From: Candidatus Woesearchaeota archaeon
GTDB taxonomy: Archaea; Nanobdellota; Nanobdellia; Pacearchaeales; GW2011-AR1
NCBI GenBank assembly: GCA_964363345.1
Contig: CAYIHY010000001.1
Span: 7,483 to 71,482 of the forward strand
Reading direction: 5' to 3'
DNA: 64,000 nucleotides
Part shown: piece after piece, positions 9,366-41,214 of the stretch
How the letters are laid out: every line of letters begins with the position of its first letter
Numbering within the stretch: the stretch's first letter is position 1
The notes under the pieces: generated by a model
Database searches by the model: none
Told to the model about the DNA's origin: nothing
What the model saw: the letters and a program-made list of their open reading frames with translations, nothing else
Program-made: the position numbers and the translations under genes

Positions 9366-11162
9366 TTATTCTTTTGATTTAATTGCTGCCCTTATAATTT
9401 TTTCTTCCAAGTCTTTCCATTTAGGATCATCAGTTAAGTTATACAATGCTTCTGAAGTCGCAAATAAATTAGCTAATGTAACAAAATTTCTTGATAATTC
9501 TGATTTCTTAGTAATCTCTCTAAGTTTTTCAACTGCTTTTGGTAAATGTAAAAGGGCCTCAATTGAAGCGGTGCGCATTAAAGAATCATTTACTAAAGTT
9601 ATCTCTGGATGAGGAAAGATTATATTTAATTTTGGAACAACTATCTCTTCGCCGATATAATCGTAACCTGATTGTTTATTGTGAAACATTACTTTATCCT
9701 TGAATAATTCCTGCTGATAGGGGAATGTTCTTTTTACTTCATAAATTCCATCCCCCCAAATATCTGTTCCCGGGAGAGGAGTTAAAAATAAAGTTGCAGC
9801 TCCGTCGACATTCATTTCCCCGATATTATAACAGATGCCTAAGGCACTTTCATAAAAAGTTTCTGCGGTTGTAGCAGGAGTATATAAAATATAATTTTCT
9901 GCAGCCTTAAGTCCGTTATCTACAATAATCTTAATTGCTTCTGAATTTTTTTCAGGAGAAGTTTTTTTCCTCATATATTCTAATTCTTTAAGAGAATAAC
10001 TCTCAGAACCTACAGATACCACTTCAAATCCCGCTTCTTTTAAGAGTCTGCATATATCTGGATTTGATACAATATTGTCTGTCCTTGCTCTGCATTGAAA
10101 TTTTAAATTTTTTCTTATCTTACCAGATTTTTTTCTTTCTATAATCATTCCTAGAGTTTCTATCGCCCTTTGGGGATGAACAAGAAAATTTTCATCATCG
10201 ATATAAATGTCCATTGCAGGATATGTAGTCGAAACAGCTTCAATTATCGTCAATATATTTTCTGCATTGATATAACGCACAGGAGAAGTCTTAGTTCCCA
10301 TTGTTCCAGAAAAAAGTATAGAACTCTGGCAGAAAATGCATTTGTATGGGCAATGGTCGCTCGAAACAAAACGAAAATAACTATCTTTTTTTCCGCCAAA
10401 TATCAATCTGCTGAGTTCCCAATATTTCCCGATTGGAGAAAGATCCAAATGTTTTGCAAAGGCATTAAGGCTTATCTCTTGATAAAATTCTGGACTTATT
10501 CTTTCTTTGACAATTGCCAAAGGTTTAGTTTGATTCTCTTCTAAAATAGACATCCCTGAAATTTCATTTATTTTAGTTTCTTCTTTCAAATAATCTAAAA
10601 ATTTTTTCTTTTCTATTTTTTTGTTATTAGAAAATTTATCATAAATCTGAATTAATTTTTGCAAGGGTAATTCCCCCTCCCCCCGAATAATTATATCAAT
10701 TAAACCCCCAAGTTTCCCCCATTGAGGATTAAGTGAGGCTTCAAATCCCCCCGCAATTATAATTGATTCTGGAGAAATCTCAAGAACATGATTTATATTT
10801 TCTAAATCTCGACGCATACTATCATAATATGGACTAAACGCTATAAAGGGGGGATGATATTTGTCGATTCCTTCCCATAATTTTTTGAGATTATCCACAT
10901 CGCAATTGAACATGACTGATTTAATTCCCATTTCCTGCAAAAATGCATGTATTCTAAAAAGACCGTTATGAAGATTTGGAATAAAATAGGGGTCATTGTC
11001 GGTTCTTTTTCCCATATCGGGGGTGATTAAAATTATTTCAGTGTCTGATTCTATTTTTGTATCATACTGAACTAAACTCTCTGGGACATTATAATTTTCT
11101 TTAATCCCTCCGCTGCCCATATCCACAGAGATATGTAAATTTTTTTGGACTGATTCTTCCAT
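9366..11162 (-). CDS. Cobalamin-binding radical SAM protein (class B-like)
   Basis: 598 aa; CxxxCxxC motif DHCPYKCIFCQSS; N-terminal Rossmann-like B12-binding-type region; C-terminal extension. Confidence 0.65.
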   Translation of the reverse strand: MEESVQKNLHISVDMGSGGIKENYNVPESLVQYDTKIESDTEIILITPDMGKRTDNDPYFIPNLHNGLFRIHAFLQEMGIKSVMFNCDVDNLKKLWEGIDKYHPPFIAFSPYYDSMRRDLENINHVLEISPESIIIAGGFEASLNPQWGKLGGLIDIIIRGEGELPLQKLIQIYDKFSNNKKIEKKKFLDYLKEETKINEISGMSILEENQTKPLAIVKERISPEFYQEISLNAFAKHLDLSPIGKYWELSRLIFGGKKDSYFRFVSSDHCPYKCIFCQSSILFSGTMGTKTSPVRYINAENILTIIEAVSTTYPAMDIYIDDENFLVHPQRAIETLGMIIERKKSGKIRKNLKFQCRARTDNIVSNPDICRLLKEAGFEVVSVGSESYSLKELEYMRKKTSPEKNSEAIKIIVDNGLKAAENYILYTPATTAETFYESALGICYNIGEMNVDGAATLFLTPLPGTDIWGDGIYEVKRTFPYQQELFKDKVMFHNKQSGYDYIGEEIVVPKLNIIFPHPEITLVNDSLMRTASIEALLHLPKAVEKLREITKKSELSRNFVTLANLFATSEALYNLTDDPKWKDLEEKIIRAAIKSKE

Positions 11163-12177: not shown

Positions 12178-12187
12178 TTTTTAAATA
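12178..12187 (+). promoter_or_regulatory. Archaeal TATA-like box TTTTTAAATA upstream of the 12209/12218 start
   Basis: 31-40 bp upstream of the ATG at 12218; this is the head of the co-directional 12.2-18.4 kb operon. Confidence 0.3.
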
Positions 12188-12217
12188 TTCTAACTTTATT
12201 AATAAATATTGGCGACC

Positions 12218-12901
12218 ATGAAAAAAAGAGCAAAATTTGATATAAAAAAATGTTGTTATAAGGAGAACACGGTATATTTAGCTAAAATAGCTGATCCTTA
12301 CACTGCAAAAATAGCACAATTTGTCTACAATACTTTCGGAATCTCTGCTAATATGATGACTTTGATAACTTTCTTAATAGGTATCGCGAGTCTATCAGTT
12401 TTATTTTTTGTAAGAAGTTATACGGGGTTAATTCTCGCAGCAATTCTCATTTTTATAAGAAATTTAACTGATACTCTTGACGGTAAAATTGCAAGAGGTA
12501 CAGGAAAAACAAGTTCAATGGGGGGATTTAGCGATATAGTCAGTGATTGGGTTTTTTTCCATGCTGCATTTTTTGTAATAATTGGCTATTTGACTAATAA
12601 TATTATCATTGGATTTTTATGTGTAACTGGATATATGAGCAGAGAATTTACAAGAAGAAAATTCACAGAAAAATATGGAGTCAAAATAACTGAAACCTCT
12701 GAAGCAAAAAAAATGCCATTCCTTGTTTCAATTGTAAGGAAATATAATCTCGGAGAAGTTACAATCCTTTCTCCATTGATAATTTTAATTAACCCCGTAT
12801 GGATAATTTATTTTGTGGCCTTTATGGAATATTTCCTTTTATTTGCAGAACTTGCATTTGATTACCTCTGCTTTTTCAAGGAAGAGAAAAATAAAAAATA
12901 G
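12218..12901 (+). CDS. CDP-alcohol phosphatidyltransferase family membrane protein (the track starts at a TTG at 12209; the ATG at 12218 is the more likely start)
   Basis: The motif DTLDGKIARGTGKTSSMGGFSDIVSD fits D-G-x2-A-R-x8-G-x3-D-x3-D; several TM helices. Confidence 0.65.
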   Translation: MKKRAKFDIKKCCYKENTVYLAKIADPYTAKIAQFVYNTFGISANMMTLITFLIGIASLSVLFFVRSYTGLILAAILIFIRNLTDTLDGKIARGTGKTSSMGGFSDIVSDWVFFHAAFFVIIGYLTNNIIIGFLCVTGYMSREFTRRKFTEKYGVKITETSEAKKMPFLVSIVRKYNLGEVTILSPLIILINPVWIIYFVAFMEYFLLFAELAFDYLCFFKEEKNKK

Positions 12902-12949
12902 CTATCTTTACTAAGAAAATTTTATAAATCAATTTCTGGAGGTTATAAA

Positions 12950-13687
12950 ATGAAAGCATTAATTCTTGCAGCAGGAGTTGGAAAAAGATTGCATCCTTTT
13001 ACAGAAGACATCCCAAAATGCCTATTAAAAGTTGGTGAAAAAAGCATATTAGAACATTTGTTGGACAGCATCTCTTCTTCGAAAATTAAAGAGGTAATAT
13101 TAGTTGTTGGATTTAAGAAAGAATTAATATACAAAAAAATTGGAGATTCTTATCAGGGGATGATTATAAACTATGCAACAAATAACTTTTTTGACCAGAC
13201 AAATAATCTATATTCTTTATGGTGCGCTCGACACTTAATTGATGACGCATTTGTCCAATTTAATGGGGATTTAATTGTAAACAGGGAAATAATTAAAAAA
13301 GTTTTCAATTCTCATTTAGAAGATGCAGTTGTAATTGACAGCAGCCCAAATAATTTTGTAGAAGACGCAAATCGAATAAGACTTGAAAAGGGCAGGGTTA
13401 TTTTGTTAAACAAAACAATTTCTAAAGAAGAATCTGCAGGGAGAGCATTTGGAATTTATAAATTTTCTAAAGAGAATGCACAGGAATATTGTAAATCTAT
13501 AGAATTAAATATCTATAAATTTAAAGATGGTTTTGAAACTGGATTAAGACCTTTACTGGGAAATTTTTTTTTCCAGATAATTGATATAAATGGATTACCT
13601 TATGCTGAAATCGATGATATGAATGATTTAGACTCCGCGAGAAAAAAAATTGATTATATAATAAATTATGGAAATTTTAAATCTTGA
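12950..13687 (+). CDS. Sugar/alcohol-phosphate nucleotidyltransferase (NTP_transferase family; IPCT/LicC-like cytidylyltransferase candidate)
   Basis: MKALILAAGVGKRLHPFTEDIPKCLL is the G-x-G-x-R-L signature of small nucleotidyltransferases; 245 aa. Confidence 0.7.
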   Translation: MKALILAAGVGKRLHPFTEDIPKCLLKVGEKSILEHLLDSISSSKIKEVILVVGFKKELIYKKIGDSYQGMIINYATNNFFDQTNNLYSLWCARHLIDDAFVQFNGDLIVNREIIKKVFNSHLEDAVVIDSSPNNFVEDANRIRLEKGRVILLNKTISKEESAGRAFGIYKFSKENAQEYCKSIELNIYKFKDGFETGLRPLLGNFFFQIIDINGLPYAEIDDMNDLDSARKKIDYIINYGNFKS

Positions 13688-15002
13688 AGAAATAGGAACC
13701 ACCCCCCTAAGAAGAAGTGCCTTAGAAATATTGGCTGCAGGGGTTGAAAGTGTTATGCCCGAAAGAGTATTATCCCAATATGTTAATTATATTGACGGAA
13801 AATTAAAAATTAAAAATGATGAATTTGAAATTGGTGATGTCTATGTTCTTGGTTGCGGCAAAGCTGTGGGATTAATGGCCTATGCTCTAGAAAAAATTAT
13901 TCCCTTAGAAAAAATAAAAGCAGGAATAGTTAATTCAATAAAAAATTTTCCAACAAAAAAGATTATAATCAATGTAGCAAATCATCCAATTCCCGACGAG
14001 AGGGGGCTTTATGGGGTTGAAAAAATGTTAGAACTAATTAAACAGATAAAACCCGAAGATACAGTAATCGGTTTATTTTCTGGAGGGGGTTCTGCTTTGC
14101 TTCCTGATCTTCCCCCCGGAATTGAATTGGGGGATATACAAAGATTAACTGAATTATTTATTAAATCAGGAGCAGAAACTTATGAAATGAACATTGTTCG
14201 GAAACATGTCTCTACATTAAAAGGAGGAAATCTTGCGAAAATTTTACAACCTTCCAGAATCATCTCATTAATGATTTCCGATGATTTAGACGGGAGAGAA
14301 GATATCGCTTCAAGGCCGACAACTTATGAAGATTCTACATTTCAAGAGGCATATGATTTGGTGAGAAAATATCATATTCTAGAAAAAATTCCAAAAAATA
14401 TAAGAATTTTCTTGGAAAAGGGATTGAGAAACGAAATTCCCGAAAATCCAAAAAAAGGGGAATCTTTTTTTGAGAATGTTTATAATTATATTTTAGCTGA
14501 CAATAAAACTGCTTTAGAGTCAATGAGAAAAAAAGCAGATTCATTAGGCTTTAATTCCTTTATTTTAGCAGAAACCCTTAAGGGAGAAACAAAAATATCT
14601 GCAAGAAATATGGGAAAACTATTTAGCGAAAAATATTCTTTAACAAAAACTCCTTTAGCTATTTTATATTCTGCGGAAACAATTGTTAAAGTTAAAGGAA
14701 ATGGAAAGGGGGGAAGAGCTCAGGAATTTACCGCTTCATTAATTCCGGAAATATCCGGGAAAAAAAATTCAGTTTTTGCTGCAATTGGTTCCGATGGAAT
14801 AGATTTTATTCCAGGAATTGGAGGAGCAATAATTGATGATACTACTCTTAGTCAATGTGCTGAAAAAGGATTAGAACTACCTAAATTTTTAAAAGAAAAT
14901 GATACCTATAATTTACATAAATATTTGGGGAATTTAATCCTAATGAATTCAACAAATACCAATGTGGGAGATTTGCATGTTTATCTTCAAAAAGATTATT
15001 AA
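13668..15002 (+). CDS. MOFRL-family kinase (glycerate 2-kinase-like, GckA/TtuD family)
   Basis: VLGCGKAVGLMAYALEKI (the GxGKA motif) and LFSGGGSALLPDLPPG (the SGGGSALL motif) are both characteristic of MOFRL glycerate kinases; 20-nt overlap with the upstream gene. Confidence 0.55.
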   Translation: MEILNLEEIGTTPLRRSALEILAAGVESVMPERVLSQYVNYIDGKLKIKNDEFEIGDVYVLGCGKAVGLMAYALEKIIPLEKIKAGIVNSIKNFPTKKIIINVANHPIPDERGLYGVEKMLELIKQIKPEDTVIGLFSGGGSALLPDLPPGIELGDIQRLTELFIKSGAETYEMNIVRKHVSTLKGGNLAKILQPSRIISLMISDDLDGREDIASRPTTYEDSTFQEAYDLVRKYHILEKIPKNIRIFLEKGLRNEIPENPKKGESFFENVYNYILADNKTALESMRKKADSLGFNSFILAETLKGETKISARNMGKLFSEKYSLTKTPLAILYSAETIVKVKGNGKGGRAQEFTASLIPEISGKKNSVFAAIGSDGIDFIPGIGGAIIDDTTLSQCAEKGLELPKFLKENDTYNLHKYLGNLILMNSTNTNVGDLHVYLQKDY

Positions 15003-15010
15003 AAATAAAA

Positions 15011-15772
15011 ATGGAAAATGTTAAATTTAATTTTGAAGGAAAAACAGTTGTAATAACTGGAGCATCCAGAGGAATCGGGTTGGCAATAGCAAACGCATTT
15101 TTAGAAAGTGGCGCATCAGTGATAAATATCTCAAAATCTAACTCAGAAGTAAATTTAGAAAAACCTAATTATATTTTCTTGCAGGAAGATATCTCTAATC
15201 TCCCCTCAATTGAAAAATGGATAAATGAATTCTACAACAGGGGCAAGAAAATAGATTTTTGGATAAACAATGCAGGAATTTATTTTGGTTCACCGCTGAT
15301 TAATGTCTCTGAAGAACATTGGGATGAAATTTTTTCTGTAAATTTAAAATCTCTTTTTTTCCTTTCTAAATTTGTTGCACAACACATGAAAGAAAATGGG
15401 GGGGGAATAATTCTAAATGCTTCTTCTTTTGCTGCAAAAATTCCTTCAATTAATCGAGGGATATATGCGGCTTCTAAATCTGCAGTGGTGAGCTTAACAA
15501 GATCTATGGCCGCCGAATGGGCCCAATATAAAATCAGGGTAAATAGTTATTGCCCCGGAGTTATCTTAACAGATATGACTAAAGATTTAACTGAGAAAAA
15601 AAATGATGAATTAATTTCAAATATAGCCTTGCATCGATATGGTTCCCCCGAAGAAGTTGCAAAGGTTATTCTATTCCTTTGCTCCGACTCTTCGGAGTAC
15701 ATCACAGGAGAAATAATAGAAATAAGTGGAGGAAAATTTCTTGTGCAAAACCAGAAAGACATCATCTTATGA
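15011..15772 (+). CDS. Short-chain dehydrogenase/reductase (classical SDR)
   Basis: VVITGASRGIGLAIANAF (TGxxxGxG); NNAG; YAASKSAV (YxxxK). Confidence 0.85.
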   Translation: MENVKFNFEGKTVVITGASRGIGLAIANAFLESGASVINISKSNSEVNLEKPNYIFLQEDISNLPSIEKWINEFYNRGKKIDFWINNAGIYFGSPLINVSEEHWDEIFSVNLKSLFFLSKFVAQHMKENGGGIILNASSFAAKIPSINRGIYAASKSAVVSLTRSMAAEWAQYKIRVNSYCPGVILTDMTKDLTEKKNDELISNIALHRYGSPEEVAKVILFLCSDSSEYITGEIIEISGGKFLVQNQKDIIL

Positions 15773-17349
15773 TAAAAACTATTTCTACCTCTTATAGTAA
15801 AGAAGATACCATTGATTTTATAATTGAAGATGATGCTGAATTTGATTGGGTTTCAAAATTTGATGATTCTAAATTTGATCGTCTTTTTGTAGTTGTAGAT
15901 AAAAATGTAAATAAATTATGGGGGGATAAGATTTTTTCTCAGTTAAAAAAACATAATAAAGAGATATTTTTATTTGATGTAGAAGCAATCGAAGAGAGTA
16001 AGTCGATAAATTTTTACCCAAAATTAATAGATTTTTTTGAATCTAATCGATGTGGATTATCTGATCTGGTAATTGGTATAGGGGGGGGAATAATAATCGA
16101 TTTAGTAACCTTTACCTGTTCAACATATATGAGAGGACTCCCAGTTTATCTAATTGCAACTACTTTAATCGGACAGATTGATGCTTCAAGCGCAGGCAAG
16201 ACTTGTTTAAATACCCAAAATGCAAAAAATGTTTTGGGAACATTTTATTATCCATTAAAAGTATATAATAATATTAATTTTTTAAAAACATGTTCAGATT
16301 ATCACGCACGCCAGGGCTGGTCCGAGATTTTTAAATACGGGCTTTTGGATTCTAAAGAATTATTGGATATGATTTCGGATTATTTTAAAAATAAGACTGA
16401 TAAAAAATTAATGGATATAATTGAATCCGCGATTAGCGTAAGAATTAAAATAAGAAATAAAAATCCTTTAGCAAGCAATTTAGGGCATACCTTTGGACAT
16501 GCCATAGAAAAAATATCAAACTTTAAAATTCTCCATGGAGATGCTATAGCCGTCGGAACAATCATCTCATTATATTTTTCTAAAAAAATAGGAATAATTG
16601 AAGAAGAAGAATTAAATGAGATAGTTTTAAGGATGAAAGAACTAAATTTGAATATTCTTTTAGACAAAGAGATAGAACCCAATTTAATGGTTGAATTAAT
16701 GATGCATGATAAAAAATCTTCAAGTAAGAATCTCAATCTTGTTTTAATAAAAGGAATTGCTAAACCCTACGAAGAGAAGGGATATTATTTCTACAAAACA
16801 AATCCCGAATTTGTGAAAGAATTCATCAAAGAGTTTCTTGTATCATATCCGTATACCCTCTCTGAATGTTCAAAAGTCATAACCTCCGATGAAATAAATT
16901 ATAATATCATAACTTCCATAAATCATCTAAGCTTTACTGTAAGTGATGCTGAAAAATCAGCAATATTTTATGAAAAAATATTAGGTTTAAAATTAGTAAA
17001 TATCTCAGAACGAGACCAAGTTTTTTCAGAAAAAGTTACAGGTATAAAAAATGCCCACCTAAAAATAGCCTACTTAAGCGGCAATAACTGTTCCATTGAA
17101 TTGATCCAATATCTTTCTCCTCAAGGAGAAAAAATAGATACGAAGACATGTAATGTCGGAAGTGCGCATATTTGTTTTAATGTTAAAAATTTTTCAGAAT
17201 TTATTGAAAATTTAAAAAATAAAAATGTTTTTTTTATAAATTCCCCCCAGATAATTCCCGACGGACCAAATAAAGGAAAAATGGTAGTATATTCTGAAGA
17301 CCCTGATTCAAATAAACTGGAATTTATCTCTGAAGAAAGAATAGAGTAG
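15769..17349 (+). CDS. Fusion: 3-dehydroquinate-synthase-like sugar phosphate cyclase (N-term) + VOC/glyoxalase-like domain (C-term)
   Basis: GIGGGIIIDLVTFTCSTYMRGLPVYLIATTLIGQIDASSAGKTCLN and GHTFGHAIEK....HGDAIAVG closely follow DHQS/EEVS/DOIS family motifs. The C-terminal INHLSFTVSDAEKSAIFYEKILGLK ... GSAHICFNV is a VOC module. The probable start ATG at 15769 overlaps the SDR stop (ATGA); the track ORF starts upstream at 15679. Confidence 0.7.
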   Translation: MIKTISTSYSKEDTIDFIIEDDAEFDWVSKFDDSKFDRLFVVVDKNVNKLWGDKIFSQLKKHNKEIFLFDVEAIEESKSINFYPKLIDFFESNRCGLSDLVIGIGGGIIIDLVTFTCSTYMRGLPVYLIATTLIGQIDASSAGKTCLNTQNAKNVLGTFYYPLKVYNNINFLKTCSDYHARQGWSEIFKYGLLDSKELLDMISDYFKNKTDKKLMDIIESAISVRIKIRNKNPLASNLGHTFGHAIEKISNFKILHGDAIAVGTIISLYFSKKIGIIEEEELNEIVLRMKELNLNILLDKEIEPNLMVELMMHDKKSSSKNLNLVLIKGIAKPYEEKGYYFYKTNPEFVKEFIKEFLVSYPYTLSECSKVITSDEINYNIITSINHLSFTVSDAEKSAIFYEKILGLKLVNISERDQVFSEKVTGIKNAHLKIAYLSGNNCSIELIQYLSPQGEKIDTKTCNVGSAHICFNVKNFSEFIENLKNKNVFFINSPQIIPDGPNKGKMVVYSEDPDSNKLEFISEERIE

Positions 17350-17365
17350 CACTGTTACATAATCT

Positions 17366-17375
17366 TTTTAAATAA
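17366..17375 (+). promoter_or_regulatory. Archaeal TATA-like box TTTTTAAATA 19-28 bp upstream of the ATG at 17394
   Basis: Suggests the GAPDH-like gene also has its own internal promoter. Confidence 0.3.
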
Positions 17376-17393
17376 TTTTTTGCAATTTTTTAG

Positions 17394-18431
17394 ATGGTGA
17401 AAAAACAATTCGGTATAAATGGTTTTGGAAGAATTGGCAGAGCAATCTTCAGAAAAGCTTTAGAAAATGGAACTTTTGATATCCCCCTAATAAACGATCT
17501 TAATCCAGATAATAATAATTTAGCTTATCAATTAAAATATGATTCTATTTACGGAACTCTTCCTTTTGAAATAAGGGGAAATGAAAAAGGTATAACAATT
17601 GAGGGAAAACAGTATGAGATTTCTCATGAGAGAGAGATAAATAAAGTTAATTGGAAAAATCTTGAATGTGTTGTTGATTCGTCGGGGGTAAAAGAAAATG
17701 TTGTCCTTGCAAGAAAATTAGTAGAACAAAATGTTAAGTATGTGATTGTAACCCATTCCCCTGAGGAAAAATTATTGGATAGAAGTGTAATAATGGGAGT
17801 TAATGAAAATGAAATTGATTTTAATAAAGATAGAATTATCTCTAGCAGTATCTGTGATGCAACGGCATTTGCTCCAGTAGTGCAACTTCTTGACTCTGCA
17901 TATGGGGTTGAACACGGATTCTTGACGACAATTCATCCTTGGCTTCAGCATCAACATCTTTTAGACGGTCCATCAACTTCTTGGTCAAAACCCGGACAAA
18001 TCTATCCCGGATACGAGGAAGGAAGAGCGAGCACTGTTTCATTATTGCCCAAACCAACTTCCTGTGTTAGTGCCACTTGCAAAGTGATTAAATCTCTTGA
18101 AGGAAAATTTGACTCTTTTTCTTACCGAGCTCCGACGGCAATTGTTTCAACCGCAAATATCAATCTTAAGCTAAATAAAAATCCTTCAAAAGAAGAAATT
18201 ATCTCATTATTCCTTGAAGCAGAAAAAAATCAAAAATGGAAGATATTTTCAAATAATTTCGAACCTTTAGTGTCAATAGATTTTAAAGGAAATGAACATT
18301 CTGTTTCTGTTGACCATAGATGGACCGCGATAAATAAATTTGGTTATGCTCGGTTGGTTCTTTGGTATGATAATGAACAAGGCTATGGGAGCAGAGTTTT
18401 AGATTTAGCTGATTATTTATTATCTCATTAA
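17394..18431 (+). CDS. Type I (bacterial/eukaryotic-type) glyceraldehyde-3-phosphate dehydrogenase-like dehydrogenase with a divergent active-site region
   Basis: FGINGFGRIGR, YDSIYG and LWYDNEQGYGSRVLDL are GAPDH/E4PDH signatures. The catalytic segment is SSICDATAFAP instead of the canonical ASCTTNCLAP. Confidence 0.65.
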   Translation: MVKKQFGINGFGRIGRAIFRKALENGTFDIPLINDLNPDNNNLAYQLKYDSIYGTLPFEIRGNEKGITIEGKQYEISHEREINKVNWKNLECVVDSSGVKENVVLARKLVEQNVKYVIVTHSPEEKLLDRSVIMGVNENEIDFNKDRIISSSICDATAFAPVVQLLDSAYGVEHGFLTTIHPWLQHQHLLDGPSTSWSKPGQIYPGYEEGRASTVSLLPKPTSCVSATCKVIKSLEGKFDSFSYRAPTAIVSTANINLKLNKNPSKEEIISLFLEAEKNQKWKIFSNNFEPLVSIDFKGNEHSVSVDHRWTAINKFGYARLVLWYDNEQGYGSRVLDLADYLLSH

Positions 18432-20296
18432 ATGTAATCATTAATTAAAAAAGAAGGTTTTTTTCTTGAATCATTCTCGAGAAATAATTTTTTCCATAAT
18501 TCTATATTCATCAAAAACAAAAGTTGTCTAAATGAATTATCTTTAGTTTTTCTTTGCTCTTCCATAAAATTTCCTTCTCTAATCTGTCTTATGAGTTTTT
18601 TTATCCGAGGGATATTATAATATTCTTTTTCTAATTCAGAGTTGGAGAAAATTGTTTCAGAAAAATAAAGAAGCTCTTTTTTAAAATATTCTGATAATGG
18701 CGTAACCATTGGCAATTTTTTTCTGTAAACAATCTCTTTTGGGAGTAATGGTAATGCTAATTTTTGGAGAATTATTTTTTTGTCTGCTCCATAAAATTTA
18801 TATTTTGCAGGAATTGTCATGGCAAATTCAACAACATTATGGTCTAAATAAGGAACTCTTACTTCGTGTGAATGAGCCATGCTGTTCTTATCTAGCTTAT
18901 TGCAATGAAAATAAGGAATTTCTGTTTTTAATTCGTAGAGTAGAGCTTTATTTAATTGGCTTCCGTCGTCATTTTTACAATTTTTTATTGTTTTACCAAA
19001 GGTATTCATAACATCAAGATCTTCAGGTATATTCAAAATACTTTTTTTAAAAAATTCTTCCTTGTCTTTGTCAAACACGCTGGAGGAAATATATTCTACT
19101 TTTTCTTTGAAAGGCATATTTATTTTATTTTTTAAATTTTCATAATTTTCTCTATTCAGTTCATTCTTCATTGGGGGAAGTTCAGTATACACATCATATC
19201 GGTTATACCCCCCAAATAATTCATCAGAACCCTCCCCACAAAGACTTACTTTTACACTTTTGCTTATGCCTTTGTATAAATCATATACCGAAACCATTGC
19301 AGGTCTGGAAAATGGAAATTCCATATGCCATAATGTTTTAATTAAATCCGTAACATAATCTTTTGAACTTAAATGCAACTCGGTGTGATCTGTCTGACAG
19401 TGTTCTGCAACCAACCTTGCAGCAGAATATTCATCTTCCGGAATATCAAATCCCGCAGTAAAAGTTTTTATCGATTCTTTAAATTTACTTGCTAAAGCAA
19501 CTATAACACTGGAATCAATTCCTCCAGACAAAGAAATTCCAACTGGAACGTCACTTATTAACATTCTTTTTACAGAAGAAGAAAGGAGCTCACTCAATTT
19601 TTTTATATAAAATTGTTCATTATTGCAAGTTTCATTTGATTCCAAATTCCAATATCTAAAAGAATCTATTTTATCGTCTTTTAGCACCATATAATGTGCA
19701 GGTTCCAACTGAAAGATTTTTTCTATTAATGTTTCTCCTCTAATTGGGTACTCATAGTAAACAATTTGTTTAAGGCAATTTTCATTCAAATCTCTTTTTA
19801 CTTCATCGGAGGCTAAAATAGATTTTATTTCTGATGCAAATATAAATTTAGAATCTTTGTAATAATAATAAAGAGGTTTTATCCCCATCCGATCTCTAGC
19901 TAAAAATAATATTTTTTTATTTGAATCCCAAATTGCAAATGCAAACATTCCATTAAACAAGTTCAAGCAATCAAATCCATATTCTTCATAAGCGTGGATG
20001 ATTACTTCCGTATCTGAACCTGAGTTAAACCTATGCCCCCTTTTTTCAAGTTCAGGCTTAATCTCCTGAAAATTATATATCTCTCCATTAAAAGCTATAA
20101 TAATGCTTCCGTCTTCATTAGACATAGGCTGTTTTCCCCTCTCACTCAAATCAATTATGCTTAATCTTTTATGCCCGAAAGAGACTGATTTATCCACATA
20201 ATATCCATCTTGGTCAGGGCCCCTATGAGAAATTGAACGAGCCATCTTTTTTATAAGTTCTTCATCCCCCCAGTTAAAACCACATATTCCACACAT
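18428..20296 (-). CDS. Asparagine synthetase B-type glutamine amidotransferase (a WbpS-like sugar amidotransferase is possible)
   Basis: N-terminal MCGICGF (Ntn Cys2); PP-loop SLSGGIDSS; 622 aa. Confidence 0.85.
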   Translation of the reverse strand: MCGICGFNWGDEELIKKMARSISHRGPDQDGYYVDKSVSFGHKRLSIIDLSERGKQPMSNEDGSIIIAFNGEIYNFQEIKPELEKRGHRFNSGSDTEVIIHAYEEYGFDCLNLFNGMFAFAIWDSNKKILFLARDRMGIKPLYYYYKDSKFIFASEIKSILASDEVKRDLNENCLKQIVYYEYPIRGETLIEKIFQLEPAHYMVLKDDKIDSFRYWNLESNETCNNEQFYIKKLSELLSSSVKRMLISDVPVGISLSGGIDSSVIVALASKFKESIKTFTAGFDIPEDEYSAARLVAEHCQTDHTELHLSSKDYVTDLIKTLWHMEFPFSRPAMVSVYDLYKGISKSVKVSLCGEGSDELFGGYNRYDVYTELPPMKNELNRENYENLKNKINMPFKEKVEYISSSVFDKDKEEFFKKSILNIPEDLDVMNTFGKTIKNCKNDDGSQLNKALLYELKTEIPYFHCNKLDKNSMAHSHEVRVPYLDHNVVEFAMTIPAKYKFYGADKKIILQKLALPLLPKEIVYRKKLPMVTPLSEYFKKELLYFSETIFSNSELEKEYYNIPRIKKLIRQIREGNFMEEQRKTKDNSFRQLLFLMNIELWKKLFLENDSRKKPSFLINDYI

Positions 20297-20345: not shown

Positions 20346-21038
20346 TTACAACTTGACAACCAACACTTGGCTTGCACATAATTCAATAAAAACTTCGGGC
20401 TTATCCCCAAAAAATTCTGCAAATGCTTTTGTAACTCCAATTGAATTTACATAGTCATGAGATATTATTATCCCTCCTTTACTCATTCGCGGATAAAAAA
20501 ATTTAAGACACTCTAATGTAGATTCATATAAATCTGCGTCAAGATGAACAAAAGAAAATTTTTTATTAACAATGGGTTCTGAAGTTGCAGGAAATATGCC
20601 CCTATAAAAATAAACATTTGGAAATTTTCCTAAATATCTTTTTACTTTATCCAATGGAGCAGAAAAATCTCCTTTTTCAAAATGTTTTTCCTCACTTGCT
20701 CCAGGCAATCCCTCAAAAGTATCAAATAAGTACAGACTTCTATTCCCCTTCATTTCACAAATTACCCTACCAGAAGCTCCTTTATAGACTCCAACTTCTG
20801 CAATATCCCCCTTTATTTTCTCTGTTCTTTTTGTGATAGAATAAATTTGATACATCTCGTCGTCGTCAAGAGTTGTTCCTATCTCCTTTTTTATTTGATT
20901 AATTAATTTGAATGCATTTATCCGATCTTCAGAACCATTATAAAAAGTCATTACCCCATTTTCTACAGAAATTCCTTTTTTTATTATCTCCCTCACAATT
21001 CTTGCAGGAATTCTCACTATTTTTGGTATCTTATTCAT
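20346..21038 (-). CDS. TylF/MycF-family SAM-dependent (sugar) O-methyltransferase
   Basis: DTFEGLPG and HLDADLYEST motifs are typical of macrocin-O-methyltransferase-family enzymes; 230 aa. Confidence 0.6.
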   Translation of the reverse strand: MNKIPKIVRIPARIVREIIKKGISVENGVMTFYNGSEDRINAFKLINQIKKEIGTTLDDDEMYQIYSITKRTEKIKGDIAEVGVYKGASGRVICEMKGNRSLYLFDTFEGLPGASEEKHFEKGDFSAPLDKVKRYLGKFPNVYFYRGIFPATSEPIVNKKFSFVHLDADLYESTLECLKFFYPRMSKGGIIISHDYVNSIGVTKAFAEFFGDKPEVFIELCASQVLVVKL

Positions 21039-21061: not shown

Positions 21062-23683
21062 TTAATATCTAATGTTTGTTGTTTTAGTTATTTTGTTAAA
21101 TACTTCTTCTCCTTTTTCTTTTCCAAGTCTATCTATTACACAATCATGATATCTAGCCATTGACAACATTTTACTCGTCTCGGAATTAAAATCAGTTTCT
21201 AAAGCCGCTCTTAACCATTTTTCATCGATAGGATTTTCTGTTAAATAATTTTTCCCTTCATTTGACAAAGCGTCCATCCACCTTTCATCAAGTTCTCCTT
21301 TTACATATAATGTTCCGAACTTGCAGATATTCCTTAATCTATTTTCTATCTCTTTAGGAAAACTAATCCCCCCAATTCCTGTATTTGTATCTCCAGAACA
21401 ACTATCATTAATTTGAAATCCTCTTTCCTTTGCTGTTTGTTCCACGTGGGTGTGGGGATAAATTTGCAAAGGGTAAAGAGAAATAATACTTCCTTTTCCA
21501 ATTCTTTTCATTCCTTCTAAGGTTTCTAGAGCATCTTCAACAGGATCAGATATCGGAAGTCCGACAATTGCCTGTAAATTAACCAGATAGCCAAATGAAA
21601 CGAGTCTATCATAAGCCTTTTTTATTTGTTCTTCATTATCCCATTGCCGATTAAATAATTTTAATGATTCTGAACGTATTGCCTGAACTCCAAGCCCGAC
21701 GCAATTAACTATATTTCTTAATTTTTTTAATATTTCATCTGAAGCTTTCAAAACGCTAACCGAAGTTGTTGAAACATACATGGGGATATTTATTTCTTTT
21801 TTCCAAACATCAACAAATTCAGAGAGCCATTCTTCTGCATTTTTACCGGCAAACAAATCATCGTCTACCCATTCAATATCATCAGTGGGATATTTTTTTA
21901 TTATCTTTGCTTCTTCTATAACTGTTTTAATATCCCTTCTTCCCAAAAAATAATTTGCCTGGGCATCATTTCCAAACAATTCTCTTCGATGCAAACTTGA
22001 AGAACTGCAGTAAGTACAAGCATAAGGACATCCAAGCATAGAGAGTATAACTTTCCTGTAACGCTGTCCCATTCTAGGAATATCTTCATAACATTTTTCT
22101 CTTGCGGGCATTGGTAAATCATTTGGATTTCCAGGGATTGTTGTGATTATCCCCCTTTCTCCGTTAAGAAATCTTTCAACTGAGCCATTAACAGGTCCGC
22201 GAACAACAACATCAACATTATTTAACTTTGAGATATCTGGAGAAGCAGTTGCATGGTGTCCCCCGAAAATAGAAATTATTCTAGGATTTTTCTCTTTAAT
22301 TTGATTTAAAATTCCGTACGCCTGCGGGAAAAAAGTAGTCATAGGAGAAAATAAAACATAATCCGGATTCCAATTTAAAATTTTTTCAGCAACTTTTTCA
22401 TCTCCTTCTGCATCAAAGAATTTTATTTCCTGATTAAATTTTTGTAACTCTCCCCCAACATAATATAAACCATATGACTCTTCATTACCAAAACATACCA
22501 ATGCGTGCTTCATTTTACTGCTTACTTTAGACAAAGTTTTTTGTTCATAAAATTCTTTTATTTTAGCGCAGACGTACTTAACATCTTTTTTGCTTACTGC
22601 AGGATTAATTGGCAAATAAAGATATCTCTCGTGGAGATAATCCATATTTGGACAAGGGCTCTTAAATTTTTTAAATATCTCAAATAAATCATTACGTAAG
22701 TGAATCATATTAACATCAACACCATTATTCAGAAGAAATTCTGCCAATTCATCTCTATATTCAGACAAAATTCCAAATAACCAATAAGAACCTCCAGCGA
22801 TAGGAATTACTTCTCTCGGTAATTCTTTTAGATAATCTAATGCTAAAGATTTCCTATACTCCATAATTAAATCTAAATAAGGAAGTGATGCTAATCCAAA
22901 ACAAGCATCAATGTCTGTCGGCTGATATTTATACCCCGCCTCTTCAATATCAAAAGTCATTTCTCTCCGTTCCCATGCCTGATAATTTTTTTTAGCTTTT
23001 AATTCTCTATCAATACCAAACCATCGCAATAATTTAGCCCTATCATAATCTTTTTTATTTTTTAAAACAAGTATTCCCCCATCGGCAGTAGTAATATGCT
23101 TAATTGCTTGAAGAGAATAACAAATGTAATTCCCCTCTAAATTTTTAGGTACATGGTGTTGTGATGCATCTACTATCACAGGGAGATTTTTTTCTTTAGC
23201 TAATTCAAATATTTTAGGATTTACTTCTATTCCTCCGAGATGAACTGCAACAATCGCCTTTGTCTTTTCAGTTATTTTTTTCCTTGCATCAATTGGGTCT
23301 ATATTTAACGTATCTTTTTCAATGTCTGCAAAAACAATTTGTGCTCCGCGTCTCACAAGCCCCATTTGTCCTGCAGTACAGTCCAAAATAGGCACTATAA
23401 CTTCGTCATCTTTTTTAATGTCTAATAAATGATAAGCAATTTCAAGTGCAGCAGTTCCAGAATTCATAAATAAAACATATTCATATCCAAATTTTTTAGC
23501 GAATTCTTTTTCAAATTTTTCTACTTTCGGACCCTGCCCCAACCATCTTCCCTCTAATGTTTCTTCTATTTCCTTTAATATCTCCTGTTTTGGAATAAAC
23601 GGCCAGAAAAGAGGAATCTTTGATTTTTTTGTATCCTGAAAAATTTCTTTCAGAGTTTTATCTTCGTCAATCTCTTTTATCAT
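21062..23683 (-). CDS. Tri-domain fusion: DegT-like PLP aminotransferase (N-term) + B12-binding domain + radical SAM domain (C-term)
   Basis: N-term LFMNSGTAALEIAYHLLDIKKDDEVIVPILD (DegT fold); middle ALVCFGNEESYGLYYVGG (Rossmann/B12-type); CxxxCxxC at MLGCPYACTYCSSS; 873 aa. Confidence 0.7.
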   Translation of the reverse strand: MIKEIDEDKTLKEIFQDTKKSKIPLFWPFIPKQEILKEIEETLEGRWLGQGPKVEKFEKEFAKKFGYEYVLFMNSGTAALEIAYHLLDIKKDDEVIVPILDCTAGQMGLVRRGAQIVFADIEKDTLNIDPIDARKKITEKTKAIVAVHLGGIEVNPKIFELAKEKNLPVIVDASQHHVPKNLEGNYICYSLQAIKHITTADGGILVLKNKKDYDRAKLLRWFGIDRELKAKKNYQAWERREMTFDIEEAGYKYQPTDIDACFGLASLPYLDLIMEYRKSLALDYLKELPREVIPIAGGSYWLFGILSEYRDELAEFLLNNGVDVNMIHLRNDLFEIFKKFKSPCPNMDYLHERYLYLPINPAVSKKDVKYVCAKIKEFYEQKTLSKVSSKMKHALVCFGNEESYGLYYVGGELQKFNQEIKFFDAEGDEKVAEKILNWNPDYVLFSPMTTFFPQAYGILNQIKEKNPRIISIFGGHHATASPDISKLNNVDVVVRGPVNGSVERFLNGERGIITTIPGNPNDLPMPAREKCYEDIPRMGQRYRKVILSMLGCPYACTYCSSSSLHRRELFGNDAQANYFLGRRDIKTVIEEAKIIKKYPTDDIEWVDDDLFAGKNAEEWLSEFVDVWKKEINIPMYVSTTSVSVLKASDEILKKLRNIVNCVGLGVQAIRSESLKLFNRQWDNEEQIKKAYDRLVSFGYLVNLQAIVGLPISDPVEDALETLEGMKRIGKGSIISLYPLQIYPHTHVEQTAKERGFQINDSCSGDTNTGIGGISFPKEIENRLRNICKFGTLYVKGELDERWMDALSNEGKNYLTENPIDEKWLRAALETDFNSETSKMLSMARYHDCVIDRLGKEKGEEVFNKITKTTNIRY

Positions 23684-23884: not shown

Positions 23885-24361
23885 ATGCCAAAAAATCTGG
23901 AAGAAAAGATATCAGAGAAAAAATTAAAAAAATTTTCATTGAGAAAATTTGGTACTGATACTTTTGCAATGGTAAGTTTTTCTTTTGTGGTGGAAGGGAC
24001 AAGAGAATTAATAGTGGGGATGTCTCCAGAACAAACATTATATTCTCGACTTGCAGGAGTCCCAATTGATTTGGTTATTGGAAGACCTTATGGAAAATAT
24101 CTAGATTATCTGCAATCCAAATTTAAGATAACTGAAAAAAGTCCCTTCATAAAAAAAACTGCAGTTGATATCGGTGCATTTGTAAGCGCAATGATGCCGA
24201 TTTATGCAGGAATACTTTATTCAATTGGAGTGGATAAAGAAACAATTGCGGTCTCATGTGCTTCAGCAGCATTATTACAAACAGCTTATGGAAGGCCTTA
24301 TGGATTATATGTTGATTTTTTAAGGAAAAAATTTGGAAAGAAAAATATACCGATTATATAA
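23885..24361 (+). CDS. AlaE-like small membrane exporter (L-alanine exporter family)
   Basis: DTFAMVSFSFVVEGTRELIVGMSPEQTLYSRLAGVPIDLVIGRPYGKYLDYL parallels E. coli AlaE (DTFAMV..GMS.EQS.YSRL..P....I.WPYG.YRD). Confidence 0.5.
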   Translation: MPKNLEEKISEKKLKKFSLRKFGTDTFAMVSFSFVVEGTRELIVGMSPEQTLYSRLAGVPIDLVIGRPYGKYLDYLQSKFKITEKSPFIKKTAVDIGAFVSAMMPIYAGILYSIGVDKETIAVSCASAALLQTAYGRPYGLYVDFLRKKFGKKNIPII

Positions 24362-30987: not shown

Positions 30988-32190
30988 ATGAAAATTGCCC
31001 ACGTAAATATGTTTTTTCTTCCAACATTCGGCGGAGTTGAACAGGTGATATATGAATTAGCCACAAGGCAGGTTAAAGATGGACACGAAGTTCATGTTTT
31101 TTGCTGCGATTCTGACAAAAATAACAGAATAGAAATTAAAGAAGAAATAATTGAAGGAATCCACGTTCACCGAATACCTTATTGGTTCAGACTTTCTTTG
31201 AATACTTTTGTATGGCTGTCATTCTTATGGAAATTTAAGGGGAAATTTGATATTGTTCACAGCCACGTTTCAGGGCATGATTACATTTTATTTGCCGGAT
31301 GGTTATCTAAACTGAAAGGAGCAAAATATATCCACACAACACATTGCCCGTGGACAGATGCTTCATTCAGGCCGAAAATTATTCGCCCATTTTTATTTTT
31401 GAATGATATTTTCATGAACAAATTTTCGTACAAATTTATTGATAAAATAATTGCAATCACCCCCTGGGAATTGGAAACTTTGGAAAAATATTCAGAAAAA
31501 GAAAAAATTGAAATTATCCCAAATGGAGTCGATAAAATTTTATTTAAAGAAGTTAGAAATAAGCAGTTCAAAAAAAATAATAATATCAAAGAAAAATTTT
31601 TGGTTTTATTTTTCGGAAGATTGAATCCGACAAAAGGTCCGGAGATGCTTGCTAAAGCAGCAATAAATATAATAAAAAAAAGAAAAGACATCGCATTTGT
31701 CTGGGTTGGTCCCGATGAAGGAAAAGCCGAGGAAGTTAAGGAATTAATTAAGAATTTTAAAAATATGAAATATCTCGGTCCGATAAAAGGAAAAGAAAAA
31801 ATTGCAGATATGTATCAATCTGCTGATGTTTATGTTCTTCCAAGTTATCGCGAAGGATTGCCCTTAACTTTATTTGAAGCAATGGCCTCGAGACTTCCTA
31901 TCGTTGCTTCGCCTGTCAACGGAGTGCCCTTTGAAATGAAAGAAAATGAAAACGGCTTTTTTTCAAATTACGGAGACATTGATTCTCTGGAAAAAAATAT
32001 AATTAAATTAATTGATAACCCAAAACTTGCAAAAAAAATCTCAGAAAATAACTTTAAAAAATCAAAAAATTATAACTGGGATGACATATACAAAAAATAC
32101 ATGAATGAATATAAAAAACTTTTAATCAGCCGTGAGCAGTATATCAGCGGGAAAATGAGTGTAAAGAAACCGGAGGTGTCGTTCAGGTGA
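30988..32190 (+). CDS. Glycosyltransferase, GT4 family (GT-B)
   Basis: C-terminal EGLPLTLFEAMASRLPIVAS (the EX7E region); 400 aa. Confidence 0.75.
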   Translation: MKIAHVNMFFLPTFGGVEQVIYELATRQVKDGHEVHVFCCDSDKNNRIEIKEEIIEGIHVHRIPYWFRLSLNTFVWLSFLWKFKGKFDIVHSHVSGHDYILFAGWLSKLKGAKYIHTTHCPWTDASFRPKIIRPFLFLNDIFMNKFSYKFIDKIIAITPWELETLEKYSEKEKIEIIPNGVDKILFKEVRNKQFKKNNNIKEKFLVLFFGRLNPTKGPEMLAKAAINIIKKRKDIAFVWVGPDEGKAEEVKELIKNFKNMKYLGPIKGKEKIADMYQSADVYVLPSYREGLPLTLFEAMASRLPIVASPVNGVPFEMKENENGFFSNYGDIDSLEKNIIKLIDNPKLAKKISENNFKKSKNYNWDDIYKKYMNEYKKLLISREQYISGKMSVKKPEVSFR

Positions 32191-38805: not shown

Positions 38806-38861
38806 TACAAATTTAACCTTCATAATCTTTTTATATTCATTTTTAAATAATTTAAGTACAG

Positions 38862-40698: not shown

Positions 40699-40706
40699 AA
40701 AAGAAA

Positions 40707-41201
40707 ATGAGAGATAAAATAAGAACATTAGATGAATTAAAAGAAATAACTTCTAAGTATAAACAAGAATCCAAAAAAATAGGAACAACAAATGGTTATT
40801 TTGATTTGCTTCATATAGGCCACATTTATATGCTTGAGAGTGCTAAATCTTTAACCGACATATTAATTGTTTTAATAAATAGCGATGATTCTACAAAGAA
40901 ATTAAAGGGTTCAAAAAGACCAATAGTCCCAGAAAAAGAAAGAGCAGAGATGCTTTCTTCATTAGAATGTGTAGATTATGTTACAATATTTGATGGAGAT
41001 AACCCTTTAGATTACATACGAGAATTAAAACCTGATATCCACATAAAAGGAGGAATTTTTGAACAGGACAGGATAAAAACAGAAAGAGATTTAATCGAAT
41101 CCTGGGGTGGAAGACATATAACTCTCCCCTTAGTTGAAGGATATTCTACAACCAATCTTATAGATAAAATAATTAAGGCTTATGAAAACAATTCATCATA
41201 A
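40707..41201 (+). CDS. Cytidylyltransferase-family protein, RfaE domain II-like (heptose 1-phosphate adenylyltransferase candidate)
   Basis: IGTTNGYFDLLHIGHIYMLESAKSLTDILIVLINSDDSTKKLKGSKRP; 164 aa. Confidence 0.8.
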   Translation: MRDKIRTLDELKEITSKYKQESKKIGTTNGYFDLLHIGHIYMLESAKSLTDILIVLINSDDSTKKLKGSKRPIVPEKERAEMLSSLECVDYVTIFDGDNPLDYIRELKPDIHIKGGIFEQDRIKTERDLIESWGGRHITLPLVEGYSTTNLIDKIIKAYENNSS

Positions 41202-41214
41202 AAACAAATAAAAA
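41195..41214 (+). repeat. 20-bp motif ATCATAAAAACAAATAAAAA, copy 1, immediately upstream of the ATG at 41215
   Basis: Identical 20-mer recurs at 42310..42329. Confidence 0.4.

Follow-up and report, generated by a model that had tools for sequence, protein, structure and literature searches.

The subject of this analysis is a six-gene operon at positions 12209 to 18431 of a 64,000-nucleotide stretch of contig CAYIHY010000001.1 from a Candidatus Woesearchaeota archaeon, the whole of which is referred to here as the window. With a confidence somewhat above even, we propose that the operon makes a phosphodiester-linked, glycerate-like 2-hydroxy acid and installs it on a surface glycan or, less likely, on a membrane lipid. 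The operon is a variant of cytidine diphosphate (CDP)-activated phospho-alcohol or phospho-acid decoration, one that contains two uncharacterized enzyme clades. The proposal draws on gene content, active-site conservation, synteny, fusions, and non-homologous replacements, all of which were observed directly.

The six open reading frames (ORFs) lie on the + strand, co-directional and tightly packed, as the original prediction described them, and every domain named for them there is borne out by Pfam. Domain and identity calls are based on Pfam, NCBIfam equivalog models, and relatives in the PDB. The genes, numbered g1 to g6, encode the following proteins.

12218 to 12901, + strand: g1, membrane CDP-alcohol phosphotransferase (PF01066, E value 1e-12, 49 bits against a cut-off of 22)
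12950 to 13687, + strand: g2, LicC/IPCT-type (COG1213-like) nucleotidyltransferase (PF00483, PF12804)
13668 to 15002, + strand: g3, MOFRL-family (class II) glycerate 2-kinase homologue (DUF4147, 3.7e-57; MOFRL, 4.7e-24)
15011 to 15772, + strand: g4, classical SDR, predicted ketoreductase (adh_short_C2, 2e-55)
15769 to 16908, + strand: g5, N-terminal part, enzyme of the 3-dehydroquinate synthase (DHQS) superfamily, distinct clade, not AroB (PF01761, PF24621)
16909 to 17349, + strand: g5, C-terminal part, VOC/glyoxalase-fold domain (PF00903, 3.5e-13; PF13669)
17394 to 18431, + strand: g6, GAPDH-like aldehyde dehydrogenase, distinct subfamily (PF00044, Gp_dh_N; PF02800, Gp_dh_C)

Neighboring genes are either separated by short gaps (48 nt between g1 and g2, 8 nt between g3 and g4, and 44 nt between g5 and g6) or overlap (g2/g3 by 20 nt and g4/g5 by 4 nt). 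The identical gene order is found in L001 and L002, with 63 to 85% protein identity and including a g1 orthologue that is 77% identical in L002, and over 20 other archaeal and bacterial loci carry the gene set again, which argues that the arrangement is not a matter of chance. The view of these genes as one conserved unit is thus upheld by the same set and order in related loci. Because the NCBIfam equivalog scores of the operon proteins are all far under the cut-offs, we regard these proteins as divergent paralogues and not as housekeeping enzymes.

Gene maps of about 30 related loci were compared, and statements of presence rest on those with enough flank. The DHQS-like gene (the cyclase family in what follows) always lies beside a GAPDH-like gene (about 20 loci), a VOC protein accompanies it in nearly all loci (none was detected in L011, L099, and L100), and the SDR is present in all cyclase-family loci but L093. 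In loci of type A, the activation module consists of a glycerate kinase and a LicC-type nucleotidyltransferase, often together with a phosphotransferase. The kinase is of the MOFRL family in the window and in L001, L003, L010, L094, L104, and L176 and is an unrelated class-I glycerate kinase (PF02595) in L006, L091, L097, L098, L103, L105, L111, and L113; the two are never found together in one type A locus. At the transfer step, L091 and L103 have a TagF-like enzyme (PF04464) in place of the PF01066 enzyme. Steps are also linked by fusions, namely, cyclase::VOC in the window, nucleotidyltransferase::SDR in L103, and CTP_transf_like::MOFRL kinase in L174. The replacements and fusions therefore indicate a cytidine monophosphate (CMP)-activated, phosphorylated 2-hydroxy carboxylic acid, and the suggestion that the kinase product is CMP-activated and then transferred gains from the L174 and L103 fusions and from the TagF-like replacement. 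In loci of type B (L008/L092, L099/L100, and L107), an acyl-CoA-ligase-type enzyme with a carrier domain replaces both kinase and nucleotidyltransferase, and a NeuD/PglB/VioB-type acyltransferase and DegT are close by in L008/L092 and L107. At 15172 to 21149 of L008, just downstream of the type B cluster, lies an ORF for a protein of >5000 amino acids with no Pfam match on record.

The GAPDH-like gene, used as a second anchor, led to six contexts (L172 to L177), one of which (L176) holds the full gene set. Two others, L174 and L177, carry a minimal module of MOFRL kinase, TagD-type cytidylyltransferase, GAPDH-like gene, and CDP-OH transferase, with an AsnB gene in L174, and have no SDR, cyclase, or VOC gene. 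L174 belongs to a close relative of the window organism, with identities of 76% for g1, 79% for a DegT::B12::radical-SAM protein, 55% for a GT2 protein, and 50% for AsnB. In L172, L173, and L175, the GAPDH-like gene is accompanied by 2-hydroxyacid dehydrogenase, HpcH aldolase, and FAH-family or KARI-like enzymes (the last in L175), as well as CMP- or NDP-transferases. Because minimal modules carry the GAPDH-like gene without the SDR, cyclase, and VOC trio, and the trio is never seen without the GAPDH-like gene, gene content argues that the GAPDH-like enzyme is the hub and the trio an add-on that depends on it.

Several features of these loci stand apart from the window version. The cassettes of L172 (a Denitrovibrio sp. 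metagenome-assembled genome; 8322 to 12461) and L173 (9001 to 12636) place the GAPDH-like subfamily in a different setting, beside a CMP-ulosonate-type CTP_transf_3 protein, a 2-hydroxyacid dehydrogenase, and either an HpcH aldolase or a FAH enzyme; a keto-deoxy acid activated with CMP may be what these cassettes make. In L091 (11253 to 11864) and L097 (7176 to 7805), the gene for a small FAH-family protein (YcgM/PRK10691-like) stands between the VOC and GAPDH-like genes, and in L173 (11073 to 11678) it adjoins the GAPDH-like gene; these positions hint at enol or beta-keto-acid intermediates. In the full-version cluster of L176, an inositol-monophosphatase-family gene (12563 to 13375) lies beside the CDP-OH transferase and an AAA_33-type P-loop kinase. 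This small kinase also follows the GAPDH-like gene in L001 and L002 and is absent from the window.

The residues conserved in g6 give insight into the step that it may catalyze. The protein does not reach the type I GAPDH model TIGR01534 (226 bits, cut-off 367) or the Epd models (165 to 170 bits, cut-offs 531 to 539), and its closest solved relatives are phosphorylating GAPDHs. Across 23 orthologues from all context types, Cys149, His176, Arg231, and Asn313 are kept (the catalytic pair aligned with 1gd1), and the segments SSICD (S148 to I, T150 to D) and HPWL (T179 to L) are invariant. In addition, R194/R195 are lost, the TGAAKA segment is altered, and 8 to 15 residues are inserted. The phosphate sites of phosphorylating GAPDH comprise S148, T150, T179, R195, and T208-G209. 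As the inorganic-phosphate site is gone, g6 is probably a non-phosphorylating aldehyde dehydrogenase. The subfamily is large and taxonomically wide.

The DHQS-like part of g5 likewise falls short of the available models, scoring 239 bits against AroB model TIGR01357 (cut-off 305) and 190 bits against TIGR04425, an AroB-related putative phospholyase (cut-off 400). The family to which it belongs consists mostly of proteins of about 378 amino acids that share 43 to 61% identity and occur in Nanoarchaeia, Woesebacteria, Lachnospiraceae, and other taxa; genuine AroB sequences are 26 to 35% identical to it. It was delimited by a family-specific alignment segment, over which members score at least 60% and all else at most 49%. 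In a contig scan with the full cyclase alignment, which centered on the generic motif NLGHTFGH, nearly all matches apart from L011 were genuine AroB, and a metagenome scan with the family-specific sub-alignment recovered family members. A plasmid tblastn for the cluster in a cultured carrier gave AroB-level matches only.

Relative to eight AroB sequences, each of the 29 family members aligned lacks six residues at a fixed place, a deletion that takes away the DExExGxR264 segment of AroB. In the Aspergillus nidulans structure, this segment belongs to the stretch from K250 to DExExGxR264xxLN268 that binds the C1/C2 end of 3-deoxy-D-arabino-heptulosonate 7-phosphate (DAHP). The family keeps E..K, GGG, R130, D146, K152, N162, E194, K197, N268, H271, H275, H287, and K356, which cover all zinc-, NAD-, and phosphate-binding positions of DHQS, and has gained invariant Arg225 and Arg229. 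Because all of these binding positions are kept, the redox and phosphate-elimination machinery is intact, and the pocket for the far end of DAHP differs. An AlphaFold2 model of the DHQS-like part (predicted local distance difference test, 94.7) is equidistant from DHQS, ValA, DOIS, and DDGS, with template modeling scores of 0.76 to 0.83 and 20 to 26% identity, so the fold search did not discriminate among them; against the solved relatives, g5 scores 136 bits for DHQS, 102 for DDGS, 97 for ValA, and 70 for DOIS. There is no grouping with AroB, and synteny is strong; neither of the refutations named in the original prediction took hold. The enzyme is not AroB and is probably not one of the known cyclases either.

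The C-terminal VOC domain (PF00903, 50 bits against 20.6) is fused to the cyclase only in the four closest relatives and is encoded by a separate gene in most loci. Motifs with conserved His and Glu (NH.SFTV, ELI.Y, GSAH.CF, and LE.I) are found across 16 orthologues, their assignment as metal ligands being by analogy. Among named models, glyoxalase I, YaeR, FosB, and methylmalonyl-CoA epimerase come nearest, and the domain reaches the cut-off of none of them. The SDR encoded by g4 is similarly under every NCBIfam equivalog cut-off. For g3, the closest solved proteins are the glycerate kinases PH0495 and TM1585 (PDB match 1x3l, 4.8e-75), and its scores lie under equivalog level (183 bits against 670 for NCBIfam glycerate 2-kinase, and 164 against 550).

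The activation and transfer enzymes retain their defining features. The transferase g1 has several hydrophobic segments and a complete D88xxDGxxAR-x8-GxxxDxxxD motif, so its naming as a CDP-alcohol phosphotransferase is sound; its best solved relatives are IPCT/DIPPS (4mnd) and AF2299. A divergent subtype of CDP-OH transferase, 24 to 30% identical to g1 and with the last catalytic Asp changed to His (DxxDGxxAR-x8-GxxxDxxxH), lies beside the clusters of L003 (19007 to 19855), L006 (4422 to 5189, - strand), and L104 (4938 to 5696, - strand). The nucleotidyltransferase g2 carries the N-terminal signature GxGxR(L), read as LILAAGVGKRL, and its best PDB matches are LicC (1jyk, 2.8e-13), IPCT (4mnd/2xme), and PntC (6pd1), in line with the LicC/IPCT-like assignment made before. 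It is predicted to be a cytidine triphosphate (CTP):phospho-acid cytidylyltransferase.

Two genes of the opposite strand follow g6 and may contribute to the same product.

18428 to 20296, - strand: AsnB-type glutamine amidotransferase (Asn_synthase and GATase), convergent with g6 and overlapping it by 4 nt
20346 to 21038, - strand: TylF-type O-methyltransferase (PF05711, 2e-20)

The first reaches 505 bits with TIGR01536 and also matches an EPS-associated amidotransferase model. AsnB adjoins the module in L001, L003, L093, L174, and L176; in L105 and L111, an ATP-grasp ligase adjoins it, and an AsnB-like gene was not detected there. The TylF-type protein is a possible tailoring enzyme whose membership is uncertain; methyltransferases, often of FkbM type, adjoin the module in L001, L003, L006, L091, L103, and L172.

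When these results are placed into a biochemical context, a pathway can be hypothesized, in which each chemical step, the identity of the acid, and the acceptor are inferred from the observations above. Most simply, the minimal module would oxidize an aldehyde to glycerate, convert this to 2-phosphoglycerate and CDP-glycerate, and install it, often in amidated form. For the window version, we infer that the SDR and cyclase::VOC protein convert a sugar phosphate to a modified aldehyde or acid, a deoxy analogue of glycerate. The DHQS-like enzyme would take up a sugar phosphate, most simply erythrose-4-phosphate, with a pentose-5-phosphate also possible, and carry out transient NAD+ oxidation, beta-elimination of phosphate, and re-reduction with no carbocyclization, which would leave a terminal methyl ketone. 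The VOC domain could then catalyze an epimerization or keto-enol shift beside the new ketone, the SDR would reduce the ketone, and the GAPDH-like enzyme would oxidize the aldehyde to the acid through a Cys149 thioester, without inorganic phosphate. The data do not fix the order of these four steps. From erythrose-4-phosphate, the simplest acid would be 2,3-dihydroxybutanoate (3-methylglycerate), an acid that a recruited glycerate kinase would naturally accept. The MOFRL kinase would phosphorylate its 2-hydroxyl group, the LicC-type enzyme would use CTP to form the CDP-acid, and the CDP-alcohol phosphotransferase would pass the phospho-acid to an acceptor hydroxyl with release of CMP. The adjacent AsnB probably amidates the carboxylate, as in glyceramide 2-phosphate. 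The FAH-family and KARI-like partners of the GAPDH-like enzyme fit alpha-hydroxy-beta-keto-acid intermediates.

In its most specific and clearly more tentative form, to which we assign well below even probability, the proposal combines a DHQS-like phosphate-eliminating deoxygenase, a VOC isomerase, an SDR, and a GAPDH-like enzyme of a new non-phosphorylating subfamily that together would turn erythrose-4-phosphate or a pentose-5-phosphate into an omega-deoxy aldonic acid such as 2,3-dihydroxybutanoate, installed either through CDP activation as a phosphodiester or in N-acyl form. This might reveal a previously unseen glycan substituent common to DPANN, Asgard archaea, the candidate phyla radiation (CPR), and ordinary bacteria. 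A scheme in which the GAPDH-like enzyme acts first, converting erythrose-4-phosphate to 4-phosphoerythronate ahead of the DHQS-like enzyme, was demoted, as in L174 and L177 the GAPDH-like product goes straight to the kinase. A lactate or methylglyoxal route from triose or glycerol phosphate was also rejected; the elimination geometry does not suit DHQS-type oxidation, and the SDR would have no role.

A number of points weigh against the pathway proposed here, in which the enzyme functions rest on prediction. As Arg231, the substrate-phosphate site of GAPDH, is invariant in the g6 subfamily, the aldehyde could retain a phosphate, in which case the steps would follow another order, and authentic Epd is likewise hydrophobic at position 179. 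To our knowledge, the characterized sugar-phosphate enzymes of the DHQS family, simple dehydrogenases aside, are all cyclases, and a non-cyclizing role would be unprecedented. A glycan with dihydroxybutanoate phosphate was not found in a literature search that was itself uninformative, and we know of none. The NeuD-like acyltransferase, DegT, and Bac_transf genes of type B loci could be a bacillosamine set, and the DegT aminotransferases, which are frequent neighbors, could serve an aminocyclitol route. Finally, the Inositol_P-family gene of L176 hints at a phosphorylated intermediate for which the proposed scheme has no need.

It is conceivable, though unlikely, that the operon serves two branches, with the GAPDH-like enzyme, kinase, and nucleotidyltransferase making plain CDP-glycerate, the cyclase, VOC, and SDR making a cyclitol or aminocyclitol, and the CDP-OH transferase (in type B, an acyl-transfer system) joining both, in the manner of DIPPS, into a glycerate-phospho-cyclitol. 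Minimal modules that lack the trio do exist, and the CDP-OH transferase is nearest to DIPPS and archaetidylinositol-phosphate synthase, both of which couple a CDP-alcohol with a cyclitol phosphate. The Inositol_P-family phosphatase adjoining the transferase in L176 and the DegT genes often found near would also be accommodated. However, the trio is never seen apart from the GAPDH-like gene, which suggests one pathway, and the FAH-family and KARI-like partners of the GAPDH-like enzyme indicate keto-acid intermediates. The g1 orthologue of L174, a locus without the trio, is 76% identical, so the product of the trio is unlikely to be the acceptor, and TagF-like replacements normally use glycan acceptors.

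The cyclitol or pseudo-sugar product of the original prediction now appears quite unlikely. There, a true sugar-phosphate cyclase would form the ring, the VOC protein (CetB/ValD type) would epimerize the cyclitol ketone, the SDR would reduce it, and the cyclitol would be phosphorylated, CDP-activated, and transferred. The fold of the cyclase does lie in the sugar-phosphate-cyclase superfamily, as near to ValA and DOIS as to DHQS, with all residues for oxidation and phosphate elimination kept; the nucleotidyltransferase and transferase resemble IPCT/DIPPS; and the cyclase::VOC fusion mirrors the pairing of EEVS with a VOC epimerase. Such a route would nevertheless leave the GAPDH-like enzyme, an aldehyde-oxidizing homologue and the constant partner of the cyclase, without a role. 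It is also unlikely that a cyclitol kinase slot would be filled by two unrelated glycerate-kinase families, and in the close relatives L174 and L177 the kinase, cytidylyltransferase, and transferase operate without a cyclase. The carboxylate-acting neighbors that interchange between loci (AsnB, ATP-grasp ligase, and the AMP-ligase with its carrier domain), together with the FAH-family proteins, would be roleless as well.

The same prediction offered a phosphoglycerate-type substituent made from the MOFRL kinase product as its alternative, and this lies closer to the evidence than the cyclitol, with a modified acid favored over plain glycerate. That the operon yields plain D-glycerate 2-phosphate or the corresponding amide, of the kind found in the Providencia O22 antigen or the Caulobacter CPG2 headgroup, and that the SDR, cyclase, and VOC belong to a different sugar pathway nearby, is very unlikely. 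In favor of it, there is established precedent for both CDP-2-D-glycerate and D-glyceramide 2-phosphate, g3 is similar to genuine glycerate 2-kinases, and the minimal module is enough in L174 and L177. In the window, however, g4 and g5 sit between the kinase and the GAPDH-like gene with junctions of 4 to 8 nt, and this interleaving recurs across domains of life. The nucleotidyltransferase::SDR fusion of L103 binds the SDR to the activation step, and full versions use a LicC-type nucleotidyltransferase where minimal versions use a TagD-type one, which is consistent with a different substrate.

That the operon is a chance row of housekeeping genes (shikimate AroB, glycolytic GAPDH, glycerate kinase, and phospholipid synthase) can practically be dismissed. 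Although the best single-model matches are aroB, type I GAPDH, and glycerate 2-kinase, the scores are well under curated cut-offs, and identity to real AroB is 26 to 35% against at least 43% within the family. Moreover, g5 lacks the R264 loop, and g6 no longer has the GAPDH phosphate sites. The surroundings are glycan-biosynthesis genes, and the scan of the neighbors turned up no further shikimate gene.

Our preferred reading, a CDP-activated 2-hydroxy acid, is best compared with the CDP-glycerate system of Caulobacter crescentus. There, CpgD, a COG1213 (LicC/IPCT-fold) CTP:phosphoglycerate cytidylyltransferase that prefers 2-phospho-D-glycerate, forms CDP-glycerate, which is proposed to act as donor when the ceramide diphosphoglycerate headgroup is made, and the authors speculate on a dedicated, unidentified source of phosphoglycerate (PMC12275187, PMC13228409). 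CpgD contacts glycerate through Met147 and Lys161 (structures 10WG-10WK). The g2 protein is likened to CpgD by its membership in the same fold class, and a CDP-acid would serve as phosphodiester donor in both cases. In Caulobacter, there are no known dedicated genes for acid formation or the kinase, the acceptor is a sphingolipid, and the transferase CpgA is uncharacterized; the operon, in contrast, has a dedicated kinase, a GAPDH-like enzyme for acid formation, the DHQS-like/VOC/SDR trio, and a neighborhood of glycan genes.

The end product expected of kinase, cytidylyltransferase, transferase, and AsnB would be a phosphodiester-linked 2-hydroxy-acid amide, and D-glyceramide 2-phosphate is such a substituent in the O-antigen of Providencia alcalifaciens O22. 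Because the window version has three extra enzymes, a modified acid is implied in its case. A further likeness exists to decoration of the teichoic acid type with CDP-glycerol, CDP-ribitol, or CDP-2-glycerol (TagD/TarI with TagF/TarL; pneumococcal Gtp1-3), in which a CMP-activated polyol phosphate is placed on a glycan, and which is echoed by the TagF-like PF04464 enzymes of L091 and L103 and the TagD-like cytidylyltransferases of the minimal versions. The operon differs in that its unit is predicted to be a carboxylic acid and not a polyol and in having its own biosynthetic branch and an amidation enzyme.

The other systems resembled concern individual enzymes. IPCT/DIPPS and archaetidylinositol-phosphate synthase also combine a LicC-like, CTP-dependent nucleotidyltransferase with a PF01066 transferase, and both g1 and g2 find their closest solved and NCBIfam relatives here. 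For the bifunctional IPCT/DIPPS model (NF041135), however, the scores are 42 and 70 bits against 580, with 57 against 180 in the second comparison, and g1 and g2 are separate, unfused genes partnered with a glycerate kinase. No inositol-phosphate synthase was seen among the scanned neighbors. The DHQS and sugar-phosphate cyclases (EEVS, DDGS, DOIS, and EboD/DEIS) share the fold and identical zinc-, NAD-, and phosphate-binding residues with the g5 clade, which differs from them in the absence of DExExGxR264, the presence of Arg225 and Arg229, the constant GAPDH-like partner, and the occurrence in DPANN and CPR. Escherichia coli Epd (erythrose-4-phosphate dehydrogenase), a non-phosphorylating GAPDH paralogue, shares Cys149, His176, Arg231, and a hydrophobic residue at position 179 (M in Epd, L in g6) at 27 to 32% identity, whereas it keeps S148, T150, and R194/R195, all lost in the g6 subfamily, and has neither the insertion nor the invariant SSICD of that subfamily. 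No paper on this gene combination, including descriptions from DPANN or CPR, was found in a literature search in which generic terms swamped part of the results.

Two of the listed start codons call for correction. The g1 start is probably the ATG at 12218, with an alternative TTG at 12209. For g5, the listed TTG start at 15679 is probably wrong and the ATG at 15769 the true start; this ATG overlaps the SDR stop as ATGA, and the resulting length agrees with a database protein of 526 amino acids (P0001). One further element was read directly from the sequence.

12180 to 12187, + strand: TATA-box-like element TTTAAATA, 22 to 31 nt upstream of the g1 start

This element is a possible archaeal promoter of the operon. 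A second TATA-like TTTAAATA is found at 17367 to 17374 (+ strand) in the 44-nt gap between g5 and g6, 20 to 27 nt upstream of the g6 start, and g6 may therefore have its own promoter too. The G+C content is about 31% across the whole window, in which Rfam and tRNA scans gave no match. The source is a DPANN archaeon; a protein of a 'Nanoarchaeota archaeon' falls into the same 90% cluster, and Pacearchaeota supply a 71% relative.

The operon lies in a neighborhood of glycan-biosynthesis genes. An 873-amino-acid fusion of a DegT-type aminotransferase with B12-binding and radical SAM domains is encoded at 21062 to 23683 (- strand) and has a 79% identical orthologue in L174; further B12-radical-SAM genes lie at 9366 to 11162 (- strand) and 32187 to 33725 (+ strand). 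These genes suggest C-methylated or otherwise radical-modified amino sugars. A homologue of the AlaE-family L-alanine exporter (PF06610, 2.9e-33) is encoded at 23885 to 24361 (+ strand), inside the glycan-biosynthesis island. At 36838 to 42255 (+ strand), a fusion of GT9 heptosyltransferase, cytidylyltransferase-like, and NUDIX domains (655 amino acids) comes first in a row that goes on with a HAD phosphatase, a PfkB kinase, and a small protein of cytidylyltransferase-like type. Together they make up an archaeal gene set that resembles one for ADP-heptose. The idea that the operon is tied to these genes or to a shared sedoheptulose-7-phosphate pool found no support.

CDP-glycerate was first described in 2025, and we know of no genes that supply or install glycerate phosphate or glyceramide phosphate on glycans. 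The operon and its relatives form a complete candidate gene set for this purpose, with acid formation, kinase, cytidylyltransferase, transferase, and amidase, and their minimal and elaborated versions are directly comparable, natural variants suited to experimental dissection. The branches of the DHQS superfamily and of GAPDH involved are unstudied, and their strict partnership suggests new chemistry. The current gene names, aroB, GAPDH, and hydroxypyruvate-reductase-like, mislead metabolic reconstructions of reduced genomes. The surface chemistry of the episymbiotic DPANN and CPR organisms is almost uncharted, and an anionic or amidated phospho-acid decoration would bear on how they attach to their hosts.

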